The notes under the pieces are model-generated. The model did not search any database. It had not been told where the DNA came from and saw only the letters and a list, made by a program, of their open reading frames with translations. The position numbers and the translations under genes are program-made. A stretch of 64,000 nucleotides of DNA from an uncultured Actinomycetota bacterium (GTDB lineage Bacteria; Actinomycetota; Actinomycetes; JACCUZ01), in the NCBI GenBank assembly GCA_963697675.1, contig CAVOOW010000006.1, forward strand, positions 1,203,518-1,267,517. Direction: 5' to 3'. Shown here piece after piece: positions 12,611 through 47,879 of this stretch. Positions within the stretch are counted from its first letter, which is position 1. Every line of letters begins with the position of its first letter.

Positions 12611-13507
12611 GTGGACAACCGAACCGAAGTCCGCGAGTTCCTCACCTCGCGGCGAGCCAAGATCACTCCCGAGCAGGCCCAGGTACCTCAGGCCGGGACA
12701 ACGCCGCGTCCCCGGGCTACGGCGCAGCGAGGTCGCCGCCCTGGCCGGGATGAGCGTCGAGTACTACGCCAAGCTGGAACGCGGCACGCTTGGCGGTGTC
12801 TCGGCCGGCGTCCTCGACGCGATCGCCCGCGCCCTGCAGCTCGACGACGCCGAACGGGCCCACCTGTTCCACCTCGCCCACGCCGCCGACGGCACCACCG
12901 CCGCCATGCGGCCCCGCCGCCGCACCGCAACGCAGTGGACGGTCACGGCCGAGCCTGCAATGGACCCTCGACTCCATCACCACCGGACCGGCGATCGTCG
13001 GGAACAACAGGTCTGACCTGCTCGCCACCAACCACCTCGGCCGCGCGCTGTACGCCGACCTCTACGCCGACCCGACCAAGCCACCGAACTTCGCCCGGTT
13101 CACGTTCCTCGACACCGCCGCCCACCGGTTCTACCCCAACTGGGACCTCGCCGCCGACATGACCGTCGCCAACCTGCGCACCGCGGCCGGCCAGGACCCG
13201 CACGACAAGGGCCTCCACGACCTGGTCGGCGAGCTGTCCACCCGCAGCGACGAGTTCCGCCGCCGCTGGGGCTCCCACAACGTCCGCACCCACGGCAGCC
13301 GGCACCAAAGCACTTCCACCACCACGTCGTCGGCGACCTCACCCTCGCCTACGAAAGCCTCGACCTCAGAGCCGAACCCGGCCTCACCATGACCATCTAC
13401 ACCGCCGAACCCGACTCACCCACCGCCCACGCACTCGCCCTGCTCGCCTCCTGGGCCGCCACCCAAGAACTCGCCCCGTCCGAGCGCAGCGAACCTCTGC
13501 GCAGCTA
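12611..13507 (+). pseudogene. XRE-family HTH transcriptional regulator (Streptomyces-type, ~290 aa), multiple frameshifts
   Basis: MDNRTEVREFLTSRRAKITPEQA, then RVPGLRRSEVAALAGMSVEYYAKLERG, then ...LATNHLGRALYADLY...HDKGLHDLVGELS, then ...HFHHHVVGDLTLAYESLDL... spread over three frames. Confidence 0.55.
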
Positions 13508-30856: not shown

Positions 30857-30922
30857 AGGTGTCGCCTCCCTGGCTACGCGAAAATATCCCTTACTCCTAA
30901 AGGGTTTTTCCCCACATCTTCC

Positions 30923-32065
30923 TCAGCCTGAAAGTCGCACCGGCATGAGGAGGTATCGGTAGTCGTCGCCGGCAACGGCATCGGCGTCGGCCTTGCCGGC
31001 CAGCACCGCGGGTCTGGTCGGCACCGTGAACCGCAGCTCGGCATGCGCGGTCGCGAGCGCCCCGAGCCCGTCGAGCAGGTAACCCGGGTTGAAGGCGATC
31101 GAGATGTCGTCACCCTCGAGCCGGGCGTCGAGGGACTCGGATGCCTGAGCCTCGTCACCGGTGCCGGCCTCCAGGGTCAGCTCCCCAGCGGCAAAGCTCA
31201 GCCGGATCGGGGTGTTGCGTTCGGCCACCAGAGCGACACGGCGCACCGACTCGATGAGCGCGTCGGTCTCGACGGTGGCGACGCCCTGCGACTCGGCGGG
31301 AAGCAACGAGCGGTATTTGGGGAACTCGCCGTCGAGCAACCGTGACGTCGTGCGCCGCCCGGCGCCCTCGAAGCCCACCAGCCCCTCGCCCGCTCCACCG
31401 GTGGCGGAGGCCAGCGCGAGGGTCACCTTGTCGGCGCTGGCGAGCGACTTCGCGGTCTCGGACAGGGTGCGCGCAGGCACGAGAGCGACGACCGACAGGC
31501 CGGTCTGCTCGGGAGTCCAGGCAAGGTCACGAACCGCCAGGCGATAGCGGTCGGTGGCCGCCATGGTGATCTTCTCGCCCTCGATCTCCAGCCGGACACC
31601 CGTCAGCACGGGAAGCGTGTCGTCGCGACCGGCCGCGATCGACACCTGGGCGACCGCGGCCGCGAAGGCATCACCGCGCAGGGACCCCGACGCGCCCGGC
31701 ATCGCCGGCAGGGCCGGGTAGTCCTCGACAGGCAGCGTGAGCAGCGTGAACCGTGAGCTGCCGCAGGTCAGGACCACCTTGGACGCATCGGTGGCGACGT
31801 CGACGGGGCGGTCGGGCAGGCTGCGGGAGATGTCGGCGAGCAGCCGGCCGCTGACCAGCGCGACACCGGGTTCGCCGATGTCGGCAGCGATCTCGACCCT
31901 GGCCGAGACCTCGTAGTCGAAGCTGGACAGCACGAGGCCACCACCGCTCTCGCGGGCGTCGAGCATCAGACCGGCGAGCACGGGCACCGGGGGTCGGGCC
32001 GGCAGGCTGCGCGCGGCCCACGCCACGGCGTCTGCAAGAACGTCTCGCTCCACCCGGAACTTCAC
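30923..32065 (-). CDS. dnaN: DNA polymerase III beta sliding clamp
   Basis: 380 aa; position and MKFRVERDVLADAVAWAAR N-terminus. Confidence 0.9.
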   Translation of the reverse strand: MKFRVERDVLADAVAWAARSLPARPPVPVLAGLMLDARESGGGLVLSSFDYEVSARVEIAADIGEPGVALVSGRLLADISRSLPDRPVDVATDASKVVLTCGSSRFTLLTLPVEDYPALPAMPGASGSLRGDAFAAAVAQVSIAAGRDDTLPVLTGVRLEIEGEKITMAATDRYRLAVRDLAWTPEQTGLSVVALVPARTLSETAKSLASADKVTLALASATGGAGEGLVGFEGAGRRTTSRLLDGEFPKYRSLLPAESQGVATVETDALIESVRRVALVAERNTPIRLSFAAGELTLEAGTGDEAQASESLDARLEGDDISIAFNPGYLLDGLGALATAHAELRFTVPTRPAVLAGKADADAVAGDDYRYLLMPVRLSG

Positions 32066-32482
32066 CGGTCACCGCCTCCTGCGTTGTCGTGCGCGATCTC
32101 GTGCTGGTCAGTGCTGCGGTTGCTGGCCCTGCGGTCGGTCATCCCCAGGTCGGCTGGAGCTGACTTGGAAGATTGATCTAACTCCATAGATAGCTGTAGT
32201 GGTCTTACTAGGTGCGGTGCATGGTGGGGATATCCCACGTTCGCCCTGCTCAGACCGTAGTCCAGGGTGGGGACAGACTGGGGACGGCGGTGGGCACGGA
32301 CCCCGTGCTCCTGGGGACGACGCGGTCCGTCCACTGCGATCCACAGGGCCGCACACCGGTTGGGCCCCGATTTCCACAGGCTTGTCCCCAAGGTGTGAAC
32401 GCAGGTCCCGGCGTGGTCAGCCCGCACGGGCTGATTTCCCCGCCCGTGATCAGCCCGGACGGGCTGATTTCTCCGCCCGTGA
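32066..32482. promoter_or_regulatory. candidate oriC (dnaA-dnaN intergenic) with degenerate DnaA boxes and an AT-rich unwinding stretch
   Basis: TTGTCCCCA (32382-32390), TTTCCACAG (32371-32379), GATCCACAG (32338-32346), GGGATATCCC. An unusually AT-rich segment at ~32160-32225 in a 70% GC background. Confidence 0.55.
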
Positions 32483-32497
32483 TCAGCCCGCACGGGC
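32415..32497. repeat. 33-bp tandem repeat x2.5, each unit holding a CAGCCCG-N3-CGGGCTG hairpin; overlaps the dnaA stop
   Basis: Units 32415-32447, 32448-32480 and 32481-32497 (partial) read directly from sequence. Confidence 0.8.
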
Positions 32498-34009
32498 CTG
32501 GGACTTGATGCGGTTGGTGAGCTCGGTGACCTGGTTGTAGACGCTGCGGCGCTCGGCCATCAGCTGGCGGATCTTCTTGTCGGCGTGCATGACCGTCGTG
32601 TGGTCGCGACCGCCGAACTGCTGTCCGATCTTGGGCAGCGACAGGTCGGTGAGCTCACGGCAGAGGTACATCGCGATCTGCCGGGCATTGACGAGTACGC
32701 GCGAGCGCGACGTGCCGCAGAGCTCCTCCATGGACTGGCCGAAGTAGGCCGAGGTCTGCGCCATGATCGTCGCCGAGGTGATCTCGGGCTGGCTGCTGTC
32801 CGGGATGAGGTCCTTCAGGACGATTTCAGCCAGCGCCAGGTCGACGCCCTGGCGGTTGAGGCTGGCGAAGGCGGTGACCCGGATGAGGGCGCCCTCGAGC
32901 TCACGGATGTTCGTCGAGATCTTGCTCGCGATGAACTCGAGCACCTCGGGGGGTGCGGCCAGCCGCTCCTGCGCGGCCTTCTTGCGCAGGATGGCGATGC
33001 GCGTCTCGAGCTCCGGCGGCTGAACGTCGGTGATCAGACCCCAGTGGAACCGGTTGCGCAGCCGGTCTTCCAGGGTGACCAACTGCTGGGGAGGTCGGTC
33101 ACTGGAGATCACGATCTGCTTGTTGGCGTTGTGCAGCGTGTTGAACGTGTGGAAGAACTCCTCCTGGGTCTGTTCCTTGTTCTCCAGGAACTGGATGTCG
33201 TCGACGAGCAGGATGTCGACGTCGCGGTAACGCCGGCGGAAGCCTTCGGCGCGGCCGTCGCGGATGGAGTTGATGAAGTCGTTGGTGAACTCCTCGGAGC
33301 TCACATAGCGCACCCGGACCCCGGCATAGAGACTCATGCCGTAGTGCCCGATCGCGTGCAGCAGGTGGGTCTTGCCCAACCCGGAGTCGCCATAGATGAA
33401 CAGCGGGTTGTAGGCCTTGGCCGGCGCTTCGGCGACCGCGACGGCGGCGGCGTGGGCGAACCGGTTGCTGGACCCGATGACGAACGTCTCGAACAGATAG
33501 CGCGGGTTGAGCCGGGTGGGCTCGCTCTCCCGCCGAGATCCGGGCTCGCGGCCGGTGCCGGCCACCACGGTCTCCTCGTGGCGGTCGTCGCCGCGGCGGA
33601 TGTCCTCGAGTCGTCCCTGGTCTGGCCCGCCGTCGTCGGGTTGGGCGCGTGCCGTGCTCGGCTGCCGGCCATGGTCGGCTCCGTCGCCGAGCGCGCGGCT
33701 GCTCTCGTTGTCGGCATCGGTGCTGGTGTCCAGGCTGGGATCGACCACGACCGCCAGCCGGATGTCCTGGCTGAGCTGCTCGGCGAGCACGGCGGTGATC
33801 ACCCCGCGCAGCCGTGACTCGATGATGTCCTTGGCGAACTCGTTGGGCACCGCGAGCAGGGCGGTGTCGTTGACGACCGCATCGAGTCGGCTGAGCCGGA
33901 TGAAGGCCAGGTTCTGGCTGGGCAGCGATCCGCCGAGCGATTCGAGGCAGCGCGTCCACACCTCCCGCAGCTCGTCTCCGGTGGGGGCGCCACCATCCGC
34001 GATCGTCAT
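32483..34009 (-). CDS. dnaA: chromosomal replication initiator DnaA
   Basis: Walker [17 protein letters not shown]-terminal HTH. The ATG at 34009 gives 508 aa; the 678-aa ORF extension was rejected. Confidence 0.9.
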
Positions 34010-34344
34010 GGGGGCGATTTCCTCCAATTCCGTGACACCGTTGTTTGTCACGGTTTCCACCCTCTCGTGCGTTCTGGCCGTGTCGGCCGTCTGATCGAGC
34101 GGGTCCGGATCACCGTCGGTGACAGCCAAATCGCCCCTGGGTAACGCTCCAATTTGTCCGCGATGTCCCACTCCGACCTTCCCCGTCCACATGGTCATCC
34201 ACAGCCTGTGTACACAGGTGCCCTGAGGCCGGTCACGAGTCAACGCGGCGCTGCCCGGAGGGCAGCGGATCGTGCACGGCTCGGGTAGGGAAGTCGCCCG
34301 ACGACGGGCGACGCTAACAACCCGGTGGGCCGGGCAGCAAGCGG

Positions 34345-34353
34345 TTGTCCACA
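34345..34353 (+). promoter_or_regulatory. perfect DnaA box TTGTCCACA upstream of dnaA
   Basis: Exact Streptomyces-type consensus. A second box TTGTCCACT is at 34615-34623. Confidence 0.5.
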
Positions 34354-34843
34354 ACGCGCAGGACATTTTTTGTCGGGTCGGGCGTGTCGCGTCACGGCAT
34401 CGCCGGCGGCCCGGCAAACTGAACGGTTGACCCATCGGTGATTCCCGGGCCGTGCGGGCCCTGGGGACACCTGGGCGGGTGTGATCGCGTTTCCGGGCAC
34501 CGGGCGACCCGGCTCGCATCGCGCTGCCCTGCCGGTTTGACCGCTCCTACCGCCGCCCCGTACCGTGGCTCGGTCGAGTCGCCGACGGCTCGATGCTGCG
34601 TGCCTGCATCCAGGTTGTCCACTGTGCGCGAGACAGTGAACGGTTTCGCACGGGTGCGGGGAAAGTTGTGGCTTCCAAGGCTCGGATCGCCCGCGGCCGC
34701 TGATGTTCGCCGAGCAGCCGTTAACCAGTTCGTCGCCAGGCGCGGCACAATGTCTGAGCATCGAGTTTCTGACGGCAACTGCCGGAAGCACGCAACGCCC
34801 GAACGACCGTAAGCCCGTAGTACCCAATGCCAGGAGCCTCCGA

Positions 34844-34981
34844 GTGAGCAAGCGCACTTTCCAACCGAACAACCGTCGCCGGGCTAAAACCCACGGCTTT
34901 CGCCTGCGCATGCGCACGCGCGCTGGACGCTCGATCCTCGGCGCTCGCCGCACCAAGGGCCGCACCCGGCTCTCGGCCTGA
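34844..34981 (+). CDS. rpmH: 50S ribosomal protein L34
   Basis: [29 protein letters not shown]...; GTG start with AGGAG SD. Confidence 0.95.
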
Positions 34982-34986
34982 GCGAC

Positions 34987-35394
34987 GTGCTGCCGGCAAC
35001 GGCCCGGCTTCGTCAGCGCGCCGAGTTCACTGCGACCGTCCGGCGCGGCCGCCGCGGCCGGTCCGGGTTGCTTGCTGTGCACGTTGATCGCTCCCCGGAG
35101 CGCGGGCAGCCGGAAGGCTTGGCCCGTGTCGGTTTTGTCGTGTCCCGGGCCGTGGGTCCCGCCGTGGTCCGAAATCGGGTTCTGCGCCGGCTACGCCACC
35201 TGATGGCGGCCCGGCTCGACCAGCTTCCGGTCGGCAGCTGCGTCGTCGTGCGTGCCTTCCCGTCCTCGAGCCTTGCCAGCTCGGCTGCTCTTGGTGCGGC
35301 GCTGGACCGGGCGCTCGGCCAGGCCCTGAGCGCGTCCGACAACCGACCACACACCAACAGCTCGGTGAAGGAGGGCCAGGTGGCCGGCCGGTGA
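34987..35394 (+). CDS. rnpA: ribonuclease P protein component
   Basis: Basic 135-aa protein immediately after rpmH ([13 protein letters not shown]...). Confidence 0.85.
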
Positions 35395-35657
35395 TAGCCC
35401 GCGTGCTCGTGCTGCCGATCCGGCTCTACCAGCTGCTGATCTCACCGATGCTGGGGCCGCGCTGCCGGTTCTACCCGTCGTGCTCCGCGTACGCCGTTGA
35501 AGCACTGCAGCGCCACGGCGCGCTGCGCGGCAGCTGGCTTGCCGTGCGCCGGCTCGGCCGTTGTCACCCGTGGAACCCCGGGGGTCCCGACCCCGTTCCC
35601 CCAGCGCGTCCGGACACCGCCCGGACACCGCATCCTCCGCATGGAGTCCGTTCGTGA
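35391..35657 (+). CDS. yidD: membrane protein insertion efficiency factor YidD
   Basis: [14 protein letters not shown]...[20 protein letters not shown] motif. Confidence 0.85.
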
Positions 35658-36637
35658 AGATTCTCGAACCGCTGTATGACGCCGTCACCTTCATCATGTT
35701 GGCGTTTCATTCCTTGTTCAAGTCGATGGGCGTTGACCCGTCCAGCGGCCTGGCCTGGGGTGGCGCGATCGTGGGCCTGGTCGTCGTCATCCGCATCCTG
35801 CTGATCCCGTTGTTCGTGAAGCAGATCAACGCGCAGCGTGGGCTGCAGATGCTGCAGCCGGAGATGAAGAAGCTGCAGGCGAAGTACAAGGGGAAGAGCG
35901 ACCCCGAGAGCAAGAAGAAGCAGCAAGAAGAAATGATGAAGCTCTACAAGGACAACGGGACCAACCCCCTTGCGAGCTGCCTCCCGATCCTGCTTCAGGC
36001 GCCGATCTTCTTCGCTCTGTTCCGGGTCCTGAACGGCATCGGACACCAGCCCGAACCCATCCCGCGTGGCCTGCTCAGCATGCAGGAGGCGGAACAGGCA
36101 GCAGCTGCGCAGATCTTCGGGGCTCACCTGTCCGACAAGTTCATCGGCGCCGACAGCCTCAACGTGCAGATCGTCTGTGCCGTGATGATCGTGGCGATGT
36201 CTGCGTCGACGTTCCTGACGCAGAAGCAGCTGATGAGCAAGAACATGCCTGCCTCGGCGATGGACAACCCGTTCGCCCAGCAGCAGAAGATCCTGCTCTA
36301 TGTCTTCCCGTTGATCTTCGCGGTCAGCGGGGTCAACTTCCCCGTCGGTGTCCTGCTCTACTGGCTGACCACCAACCTGTGGACGATGGGTCAGCAGTTC
36401 TACGTCATCCGCCGGAACCCGGCCCCTGGATCGCCGGCGTTTGACGCCCTGGAGAAACGCAAAGCCGAGAAGGCCGCCCGCGCGAAGCACGAGGCCGTCG
36501 CTGCCGAGGCAGTCGGCACCACCACCGCCGTTGACGAAGCGGGCGAGCAAGGTGCCGAGGCCACCGGCACCGATGGCCCGACACGAACGCCTCGCCAGCG
36601 GCAACAGCCTCGTCGGCAGCCGAAGCGCAAACGCTAG
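35654..36637 (+). CDS. yidC: membrane protein insertase YidC
   Basis: GTG start overlaps the yidD stop (GTGA). Contains the conserved YidC/Oxa1 membrane core; lysine-rich C-terminus. Confidence 0.85.
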
Positions 36638-46325: not shown

Positions 46326-47879
46326 TTAGGAGCCGCGGACGGTGACCTCGGCGAGCTGGCCGCGAAAGCCGCCGTTGACGGCAGGGAGCTTGGTCAGCCA
46401 GAGCAGTACGTAGCGGCCTCTGGTGGCCTTGTCGAAGGTCAGCGGCGTGCGGCCGACGATGTCAGTGCCCGTTGTCGCCTTCGAGTAGTCGGCCAGCGCG
46501 TCGCCCTCGTCATTCGCGACGCGGACCTGCAGGTCGGTCCCCGCTCCGACGGCCGTCACGGTCACCGATGACACGTCCTTGCGCGAGCCGAGGTCGAGCA
46601 CGAGCCCGACGCCCTTCTTCAGCCCGCCCGGGCCGAACTGCTGGCGATAGATGTTCGTGTTCCACACCGTGGTGACATTGCCGTCGAAGGCCTGGTCGGC
46701 CCGGTCGGTGTTCTCCTCGCCGTCACCCTCCGGCTCGGGGTCGAGCGTCGTGGCGCCCTTGATGCCCAGCTTGCTCGCTCCGCTGGTGGGGGGCGAGGAT
46801 GCCGATGTCGTCGGATCGGGCGGATCGTCGGTCAGCCCCGCGAAGTTCGAGTTGAACAGCTGGTAGCCGGCCAGACCGAGCCCCACCAGCAGCACGAGTC
46901 CCACCAGCAACGACAGTGGGCCGACCACCCGCCCCCTCGGGGCAGCCTCGTCGTCGTACGGCGAGAGATAGGGACCCGGCTGCGGCGGCGGGGTGTCGTC
47001 GCCGTGCAGACCGCCGCGCGGTTCGACCACGGGGATGCGGCTCGTCGCGGCCGTCGAGGTGAGCCGCCGAGCCAGCTCGGCCGGCGTGCGCACCGGCTCG
47101 CCGGCGTTGCCCGCGCCGTGCCGTGCCGTGCCGAGGGTCGCGGTGACGAGCGTGTCGAGGTCGACGGGCACGCCGGCCCGCACCTGCCGCGGGCTGCATA
47201 CCCGGTCGCCGTCGTAGGGCGCTGCGGTCACGGCGGAGGGCTCCGCGCCCGGCCATCTGCCGGTGAGCGCGGTGTAGAGGATGGCAGCCGCGCCTTGCGT
47301 GTCGCGCATGGCGGCATCGGCATCGTCGACGGCGACCAGGCCGCGCACGGCGGCGTCGACGGCCAGGCCGGCGACCTTGATCTGTCCGTGGCTGGTCCGC
47401 AGCACATGCTCGGGGGTCAGGCAGAGATGGGACAGCCCCTCGCGGTGGGCGGCTTCGAGGGCGTTGGCGACCTCGGTCGCGAGATCGCAGGCGTGACCGG
47501 CCGTCAGTGGGCGGTCGGCGATCAGGTCGGCGAGGCTGCTGGCGGTCACCCACTCGCTCACGACGTAGACGACTCCGTCGGTGTCGTTCGCATCGAGGAC
47601 CCGGAGGAAACGAGCGTCGGTGACGGCAGCCGCGCGGCGGGCGGCGCTCAGGACGCGCTGCGCTCCTGCGCTGTCGCCCTGCAGCAGGCACAGTCCGACG
47701 GCGCGGTCGAGCAGCTCGTCGTGGGCCCGCCAGTACGTCGTGCCCTCCGCGGCGTGCCCGAGCGCCTGTTCGAGCAAGTAGCGGTCAACGAGCCGGGTGC
47801 CCGGGTCGAGGGTGTGAGGTCCGTCGTTCGCGGGTGACACACAACTCCTCGCACGTAGGGCCGATCCCGTTAGGAACAA
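46326..47879 (-). CDS. Ser/Thr protein kinase-like protein with TM helix and extracellular beta-rich domain (MviN-associated pseudokinase-like)
   Basis: Kinase-fold N-terminus, then a TM segment (LLVGLVLLVGLGLAGY) and a C-terminal secreted domain. Lies next to murJ. Confidence 0.6.
   Translation of the reverse strand: MFLTGSALRARSCVSPANDGPHTLDPGTRLVDRYLLEQALGHAAEGTTYWRAHDELLDRAVGLCLLQGDSAGAQRVLSAARRAAAVTDARFLRVLDANDTDGVVYVVSEWVTASSLADLIADRPLTAGHACDLATEVANALEAAHREGLSHLCLTPEHVLRTSHGQIKVAGLAVDAAVRGLVAVDDADAAMRDTQGAAAILYTALTGRWPGAEPSAVTAAPYDGDRVCSPRQVRAGVPVDLDTLVTATLGTARHGAGNAGEPVRTPAELARRLTSTAATSRIPVVEPRGGLHGDDTPPPQPGPYLSPYDDEAAPRGRVVGPLSLLVGLVLLVGLGLAGYQLFNSNFAGLTDDPPDPTTSASSPPTSGASKLGIKGATTLDPEPEGDGEENTDRADQAFDGNVTTVWNTNIYRQQFGPGGLKKGVGLVLDLGSRKDVSSVTVTAVGAGTDLQVRVANDEGDALADYSKATTGTDIVGRTPLTFDKATRGRYVLLWLTKLPAVNGGFRGQLAEVTVRGS

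Follow-up and report, generated by a model that had tools for sequence, protein, structure and literature searches.

The spacer of 417 bp between dnaA and dnaN (positions 32066–32482) in a 64,000-nucleotide stretch of contig CAVOOW010000006.1 from an uncultured Actinomycetota bacterium, hereafter the window, is very probably a chromosomal replication origin (oriC) of the known actinobacterial plan, and comparison of the sequences makes it equally probable that the adjoining 33-bp repeat represents a variable-number tandem repeat (VNTR) confined to one lineage and situated outside the origin core. An earlier note, made from the letters of the DNA, had named this spacer as an oriC candidate with an AT-rich unwinding element; that assignment is well supported by gene context, DnaA-box density, the layout of the elements and purifying selection. 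The genes follow the order rnpA-rpmH / dnaA-dnaN-gnd-recF-gyrB, the classic origin-region block. In Actinobacteria, oriC lies between dnaA and dnaN and comprises two box arrays, DnaA-trios and an unwinding element (PMC12500396; PMC4285127).

DnaA boxes cluster in this spacer more densely than anywhere else in the window. The core TCCMCA occurs eight times between 32087 and 32386, the densest 300 bp of the 64 kb, against 0.25 expected from a background of 0.83 per kb (Poisson P of about 3e-10, or about 6e-8 after correction for the number of windows). Altogether 11 DnaA boxes were mapped in the origin region. The three boxes quoted in the earlier note were all recovered on the plus strand, as TTGTCCCCA (32382–32390), (A)TTTCCACA(G) (32370–32378) and (C)GATCCACA(G) (32337–32345); six further boxes on the minus strand had been overlooked. 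The plus-strand boxes form a dnaA-proximal array at 32327–32390, consisting of TTGTCCCCA (32382–32390), ATTTCCACA (32370–32378), CGATCCACA (32337–32345) and CCGTCCACT (32327–32335), with spacings of 12 and 10 bp within the pairs. Read on the dnaA-sense strand they are TGGGGACAA, TGTGGAAAT, TGTGGATCG and AGTGGACGG, and all four are directed back to dnaA; neither alignment A1 nor A2 shows any variation in the TGGGGACAA..TGTGGA cores. A second array on the minus strand (32268–32320) has the opposite orientation, toward the unwinding element, and comprises TCGTCCCCA (32312–32320), CCGTGCCCA (32291–32299), CCGTCCCCA (32279–32287) and CTGTCCCCA (32268–32276) at spacings of 21, 12 and 11 bp. CTGTCCCCA is invariant in 16 of 16 aligned sequences. 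Boxes of the TCCCCA type are in use in Mycobacterium tuberculosis, where CTGTCCCCA has itself served as a box in oriC work (as an oligonucleotide; PMC2607554). The box spacings of 10–12 bp agree with the 10–12-bp and 22-bp box arrays that Tandem Repeats Finder (TRF) detects in the spacers of relatives. A last box, TCATCCCCA (TGGGGATGA in the dnaA sense), stands on the plus strand at 32139–32147, beyond the unwinding element and facing a box pair on its other side. Its CTGGGGA is invariant in ten sister sequences and reads TGGGGA or TGTGGA in the five nearest loci of a wider survey.

That survey scanned a genome collection for DnaA and yielded 80 loci, the nearest being uncultured Actinomycetota metagenome-assembled genomes (MAGs; L001–L005) with 80–82% DnaA identity. 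A protein search added 17 DnaA sequences at 91–97% identity, of which eight contigs were used (L082–L089), and one more locus, L081, came from a metagenome scan with the 33-bp repeat unit. Fifteen close relatives and about 60 more distant actinomycetes made up the comparison sets. Across them, the case that the spacer is under strong purifying selection is well supported by the alignments. A core of 266 bp (32140–32405) keeps a fixed length, with a single 1-nt indel in a ten-sequence alignment, and among the ten sisters its pairwise identity is 79–91%, reaching 91% over the central 98 bp, compared with 76% at the third codon positions of dnaA. The boxes and the AT-rich block are also kept in L001–L005. 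The flanks of the core vary. On the dnaA side lies a hypervariable linker (32406–32482), which ranges from 8 to 132 nt among the ten sisters at a mean pairwise identity of 23% and is filled here by the 33-bp repeat; L001–L005 either lack it or have an unrelated sequence in its place. On the dnaN side, the minus-strand segment 32066–32138 comprises a variable linker (32081–32138; 33–79 nt and 46% identity among sisters) and the dnaN ribosome-binding site, AGGAGG, at 32075–32080.

Within the core, a module of four adjoining parts marks the predicted site of opening. A box pair on the minus strand (32216–32233) consists of ATATCCCCA at 32225–32233 followed directly by the degenerate CCATGCACC at 32216–32224, at the place where about 60 relatives have TTnTCCMCA GTnTCCACC. 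After it come a GC spacer, GCAC (32212–32215), and a period-3 array, CTA GTA AGA CCA CTA CAG CTA (32191–32211), which together occupy 32191–32215 on the minus strand; an A holds the third position in six of the seven triplets, and the array is invariant in the ten sisters. The AT-rich stretch, the predicted DNA unwinding element, extends over 32162–32211 directly after the box pair, has 40% GC over 50 bp and is nearly invariant in sisters. The AT-rich run of 60 bp described in the earlier note is indeed the lowest in GC of all 64 kb (32163–32222; 43% against 69% overall), though by a modest margin, the runner-up 60-bp windows having 45–50% GC. The second most AT-rich 60-bp window (30876–30935, 45% GC) lies at the dnaN-gnd junction.

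This arrangement resembles the basal unwinding system (BUS), which consists of a DnaA-box pair, a GC spacer, DnaA-trios and AT-rich DNA (Richardson/Pelliciari/Murray; PMC6669920, PMC8287927, PMC10721633). A trio is 3′-NAN-5′ on the bound strand and reads.T. on the box strand, and the spacer consists of a weaker second box plus about 4 GC-rich nt. The published BUS rule calls for a box with at most two mismatches, a spacer of at most 16 nt (most commonly 13) and at least three trios (PMC8287927). Here, ATATCCCCA (32225–32233, minus strand) has two mismatches to TTATCCACA and is oriented to the trios, CCATGCACC and GCAC add up to a spacer of 13 nt, the commonest length in that survey, and AT-rich DNA follows directly past the trios. 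Box orientation, the adjacent second box, the 13-nt spacer with its four GC-rich bases, the period-3 array and the AT-rich DNA are thus shared with BUS, and the layout is that of the modules predicted for Frankia CcI3 (TTATCCCCA GTATCCACA CCCC CTACTACTA) and, similarly, for Streptomyces coelicolor (PMC8287927 supplement). The module differs in having two consecutive canonical trios where at least three are required, and for that reason we do not file it as a BUS member; we conclude from its sequence that it would work like a BUS without being a rule-passing one. The same holds widely among relatives. An orthologous module of box pair, GC spacer, period-3 array and AT-rich DNA is evident in 61 actinomycete spacers, of which four pass the trio rule. 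The family consensus is CTA nGA CGA CGA CnA, with a third-position A in 52–89% of sequences, and its recurring triplets CGA and CTA correspond to 3′-GCT and 3′-GAT on the strand that DnaA would bind. Since the triplets are mostly CGA and CTA, the periodic invariant is the third-position A and not the middle base. By their sequence, these non-canonical actinomycete arrays may be the 'deviant trios' suspected by the authors of the BUS survey.

The elements, their arrangement and their conservation are read directly in the alignments; for DnaA binding, unwinding and helicase loading, we infer a course of events from characterised origins. DnaA would bind the two opposed, helically phased arrays of TTGTCC(A/C)CA-type boxes (32268–32390) and also the co-oriented box pair at 32216–32233. 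From that pair, a DnaA-ATP filament would be expected to extend across the 4-nt GC spacer and the trio-like period-3 array into the 40%-GC stretch at 32162–32211, which would melt for helicase loading, with the box at 32139–32147 presumably closing the far side.

Set beside the characterised origins of Streptomyces, Mycobacterium and Kocuria/Micrococcus, the spacer has in common with them two arrays that hold multiple boxes of the TTGTCCACA family, and one AT-rich unwinding stretch amid high-GC DNA (PMC4285127, PMC2607554, PMC12500396). It differs in being compact, with about 11 boxes in a 266-bp core (the Streptomyces origin measures about 950 bp, and that of M. tuberculosis has 13 boxes), and in having more TCCCCA than TCCACA cores. 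Its unwinding element is on the dnaN side, whereas the mapped site of opening in M. tuberculosis lies some 500 bp upstream of dnaN (PMC2607554).

The 33-bp repeat has a different history from the core. TRF reports 2.6 copies at 32412–32497 (period 33, 92% matches, score 151), bearing out the earlier observation of a 33-bp unit repeated across the dnaA stop codon. Read on the minus (dnaA-sense) strand, the copies are A at 32465–32497 (GCCCGTGCGGGCTGATCACGGGCGGAGAAATCA), B at 32432–32464 and the partial C at 32412–32431, and the units are in register across relatives. Copy A holds the last four dnaA codons and the TGA stop (32483–32485), and the first 15 nt of each unit equal those four codons plus the stop. 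Beyond the stop, the array occupies the dnaA-proximal hypervariable linker and lies wholly outside the conserved core. Seven sequences with DnaA at least 95% identical carry the repeat, in 1.4 (L082, L089), 1.8 (L081, L088), 2.4 (L084), about 2.5 (L083) and 2.6 copies (the window); it is absent from L001–L005 and from L085, L086 and L087 (91–93% DnaA identity). No further copy of the unit occurs in the 64-kb window, and a metagenome scan of the whole collection with the unit gave a single match, at the same locus in a sister strain.

Comparison with these relatives points to how the array arose. In repeat-free relatives dnaA ends GCC CGT GCG GG(C/A) TAG CC. The ancestral ...GGCTAGCC end, as found in L085 and L086, persists in the last copy of L082, L084 and L089, so the 33-bp units were inserted after the last dnaA codon (GGC) and ahead of the ancestral TAG stop. 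Every unit comprises a 20-nt new segment with a new TGA stop and a 13-nt copy of the dnaA end. The DnaA C terminus, SQARAG, is unaltered by the repeat because the first unit brings a new in-frame TGA. The linkers of the units are identical within L084 and divergent between lineages, a pattern that implies concerted evolution or ongoing expansion, contraction or conversion; the array would thus have expanded, contracted and become homogenised, slippage or gene conversion between direct repeats being the likeliest route. Copy-number variation among close relatives, absence from outgroups and homogenisation within lineages are the marks of slippage-type VNTRs, which this repeat further resembles in varying among near-identical relatives, in being bounded by a 13-nt direct repeat and in containing inverted repeats. 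It differs from them in spanning a stop codon without changing the protein and in lying directly beside a replication origin. From its sequence and distribution, it looks like a recent, neutral-looking VNTR and not a conserved part of the origin. A dispersed element of the repetitive extragenic palindrome or miniature inverted-repeat transposable element type was rejected, as the unit is unique in the window, its one match in the metagenome scan was at this same locus in a sister strain, and its first 15 nt are the end of dnaA itself. A lone palindrome, TCAGCCCGCCCGGGCCGA, at 46619–46636 (plus strand) has one mismatch to the hairpin core of the repeat and is probably an unrelated GC-rich hairpin.

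Other lineages also have tandem repeats beside the origin. A Frankiales MAG (L010) carries an unrelated 45-bp repeat in 2.3 copies in the same linker, just past the dnaA stop (39–140 of the extracted spacer), and three loci (L059, L060 and L067) have 12–19-bp tandem repeats in the dnaN-side linker. These cases suggest that origin-flanking linkers are prone to tandem duplication. The remaining tandem repeats in 76 spacers are of short period, mostly the 10–12-bp or 22-bp DnaA-box arrays.

Several observations weigh against the assignment of the spacer as origin and of the repeat as a neutral VNTR. A scripted version of the strict BUS rule, run on both strands of the spacer, passed nothing: at least three consecutive trios are needed and two are present (CTA GTA). 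GC disparity reaches its minimum at 13497, with a skew of +0.013 on the left and +0.029 on the right, and 64 kb is too short to judge; none of the GC, AT, RY and MK disparity curves over the window has an extremum at the spacer. Skew that is weak and positive on both sides decides nothing about the origin. The refuting condition named in the earlier note, a skew minimum and box clustering elsewhere, therefore has a divided outcome: the boxes do cluster in the spacer, but the minimum does not fall there. A second conserved DnaA-box cluster, which includes the sole perfect TTGTCCACA of the window (34345–34353), lies upstream of dnaA. Finally, no lineage with DnaA at least 95% identical is without a stable hairpin, and this, together with the homogenisation of the units, could reflect weak selection and not neutrality. 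The upstream cluster raises the prospect that the origin lies elsewhere or is bipartite, with the rpmH-dnaA intergenic region (34010–34843) as the origin or its essential second half. By strict consensus this region holds the densest cluster as well as the perfect box; its conserved boxes fall in 34150–34625, and the blocks TTGTGGACAA and TGTGGATGACCATGTGGACGG (the latter at about 34183–34203) do not vary among sister contigs. Other phyla have bipartite origins that dnaA splits in two (PMC4285127), and the dnaA-dnaN spacer does not stand out in GC skew. However, the rpmH-dnaA region has no module of box pair, spacer, period-3 array and AT-rich DNA, its lowest-GC 40-bp window being 45% GC, whereas all of the approximately 60 relatives have the unwinding module in the dnaA-dnaN spacer, and each characterised actinobacterial origin is a continuous one, placed between dnaA and dnaN. 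The perfect TTGTCCACA, also invariant in the sister contigs, stands just upstream of an equally invariant promoter-like TTGCTG...TAGCGT, which was read from the alignment and at which the consensus promoter scan found no site. We therefore regard an upstream or split origin as very unlikely; judging by its sequence, the upstream cluster probably serves dnaA autoregulation.

For the repeat, the alternatives to a neutral VNTR give its hairpins or its units a function. One such proposal is that the hairpins act on the dnaA transcript, as 3′ stem-loops that terminate or pause transcription or block 3′ exonucleases and so limit read-through into the origin. The two junction-spanning hairpins (copies B and C) are stable, at −13.8 and −13.5 kcal/mol (z-scores of −3.7 and −2.3), GC-rich and placed directly after the dnaA stop; the array as a whole folds better than shuffled sequence (z-score −3.4), and every repeat-bearing lineage retains at least one junction hairpin. 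The earlier claim that each unit can form a hairpin thus holds for these two but fails for copy A, which overlaps the stop: its fold of −8.9 kcal/mol (z-score −0.2) is no better than that of shuffled sequence. Like intrinsic terminators, the repeat has GC-rich stem-loops of 8–9 bp directly past a stop codon, but what comes after the hairpins is CACGGGCGG on the dnaA-sense strand, where a U-tract of 7–9 nt is lacking, and on the opposite strand UUUCYCC, which is not conserved (TCTCCTC in L081, CTGTTCTG in L084). Intrinsic termination by mycobacterial RNA polymerase depends on a U-tract (PMC3993855), and a scan for consensus promoters and terminators across 31500–35200 returned no sites. Nor is the presence of the stem-loops conserved. 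The gap from the dnaA stop to the first origin element is 8 nt in L085 (93% DnaA identity) and about 7 nt in L003, and as these two are nearly without a linker, insulation from dnaA read-through is dispensable. The terminator array that the earlier note had put forward as insulating oriC is not supported, given the missing U-tract, the absence of the repeat at 80–93% DnaA identity and the 8-nt linker of L085, and a role of the hairpins on the transcript is unlikely more generally. The note's other suggestion, a structured origin element, likewise lacks support, given the position of the repeat outside the conserved core in a hypervariable linker, its range of 1.4–2.6 copies and its absence from those same relatives. 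In a related proposal the 33-bp units would be iteron-like sites at which a lineage-specific regulator or DnaA modulates origin firing or dnaA expression. The period of 33 bp is about three helical turns, so the units would share one face of the helix; each has a TGATCA palindrome flanked by CGGGC and, on the plus strand, a weak box-like ATTTCCCCG or TTCTCCGCC, and the array directly adjoins the origin. Iterons are direct repeats conserved with their origin and served by a cognate protein, a description that these units do not fit: copy number varies from 1.4 to 2.6, the array is missing in relatives with a near-identical origin core, no part of the unit is less well conserved than its box-like linker (CAGAACAGTCA in L084, for instance) and the locus has no extra gene for a regulator or candidate binding protein. 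We consider iteron-like function extremely improbable. On the VNTR reading, the hairpins would be a by-product of a quasi-palindromic unit and at most a 3′ stem-loop on the dnaA mRNA.

The origin core contains one further conserved element, which is not a DnaA box. This 9-mer (32245–32253, minus strand) reads CTGAGCAGG here and CTGACCAGG in sisters, with the class consensus CTGACCTGC. It forms part of a conserved block, CTACGGTCTGAGCAGG (32245–32260). The start of the 9-mer stands at a constant distance of 20 nt (20–21 nt across loci) upstream of the box pair that adjoins the unwinding element. Among 60 actinomycete origins, 36 match CTGACCTGC with at most one mismatch and 46 with at most two, all at an offset of −20 or −21, against a background rate of 2.5e-4 per position; 17 of the 31 exact occurrences across the 80 loci fall at this one site. 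The motif is found in several actinomycete orders (Nonomuraea, Kribbella, Knoellia, Jiangella, Planktophila and Frankiales MAGs), across which the 9-mer is as strongly conserved as the DnaA boxes. CTGACCTGC matches none of the consensus sequences for MtrA, AdpA and the DnaA box, and a literature search for it found no description, returning irrelevant primer matches only. A tentative possibility suggested by this conservation is that CTGACCTGC, alongside the 'deviant' trios (3′-GCT-5′ / 3′-GAT-5′), is an undescribed component of these origins, either a site for a so far unknown origin factor or a special low-affinity DnaA site. Less likely than this is that the 33-bp hairpin VNTR would be a strain-variable modulator of dnaA expression or origin firing.

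The genes around the spacer are divided between the strands. On the minus strand are dnaA, dnaN, gnd, recF and gyrB (NCBIfam matches for dnaA, dnaN, recF and gyrB), and past dnaA the plus strand carries rpmH, rnpA, yidD, yidC, jag, rsmG, parA and parB. The gene for the DNA polymerase III beta clamp, dnaN, occupies 30923–32065 (minus strand; TIGR00663, E value 4e-87) with a GTG start at 32065. The dnaA coding sequence, at 32483–34009 (minus strand; TIGR00362, E value 1e-155), encodes 508 amino acids and ends with the TGA at 32483–32485; the listed open reading frame (ORF) of 678 amino acids, starting at 34519, is over-extended by about 170 codons. Because the TIGR00362 alignment begins at residue 188 of the long ORF and the ATG at 34009 is preceded by GGAGG, that ATG is likely to be the true start of a protein of about 508 amino acids, and the start region is alignable with sister contigs. 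Gene callers likewise picked varied and over-long dnaA starts (514–563 amino acids) in the sister contigs. Four ORFs that cross the dnaA-dnaN spacer gave no Pfam match and were treated as spurious ORFs of high-GC DNA. Exact-protein look-ups with the DnaN and DnaA of the window found no match. Neither did a BLAST search of the spacer against plasmids, and so nothing points to a mobile or plasmid-derived origin. An Rfam scan of 31000–36000 gave a sub-threshold match alone, to AsdA, the Salmonella antisense RNA of dnaA (33306–33394, plus strand; 33.4 bits, where the gathering score is 52). The match falls within the coding sequence of dnaA, is unrelated to the 33-bp repeat and most likely reflects coding conservation in the AAA+ part of dnaA, not an RNA gene.

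For an uncultured actinomycete lineage, these results narrow the probable origin down to a core of 266 bp, annotated at the level of single bases. The hairpin repeat would be evolutionary noise in a linker and not origin machinery, which makes it unsuitable as an origin signature. The position of the origin is useful for orienting MAGs and for estimating growth rates from the peak-to-trough ratio of coverage. More interesting than the repeat itself are two by-products of the comparison, the CTGACCTGC motif and the non-canonical trio pattern. They provide two testable general points on actinobacterial origins: trio arrays that fail the canonical rule, and a CTGACCTGC motif held at a fixed distance from the box pair.

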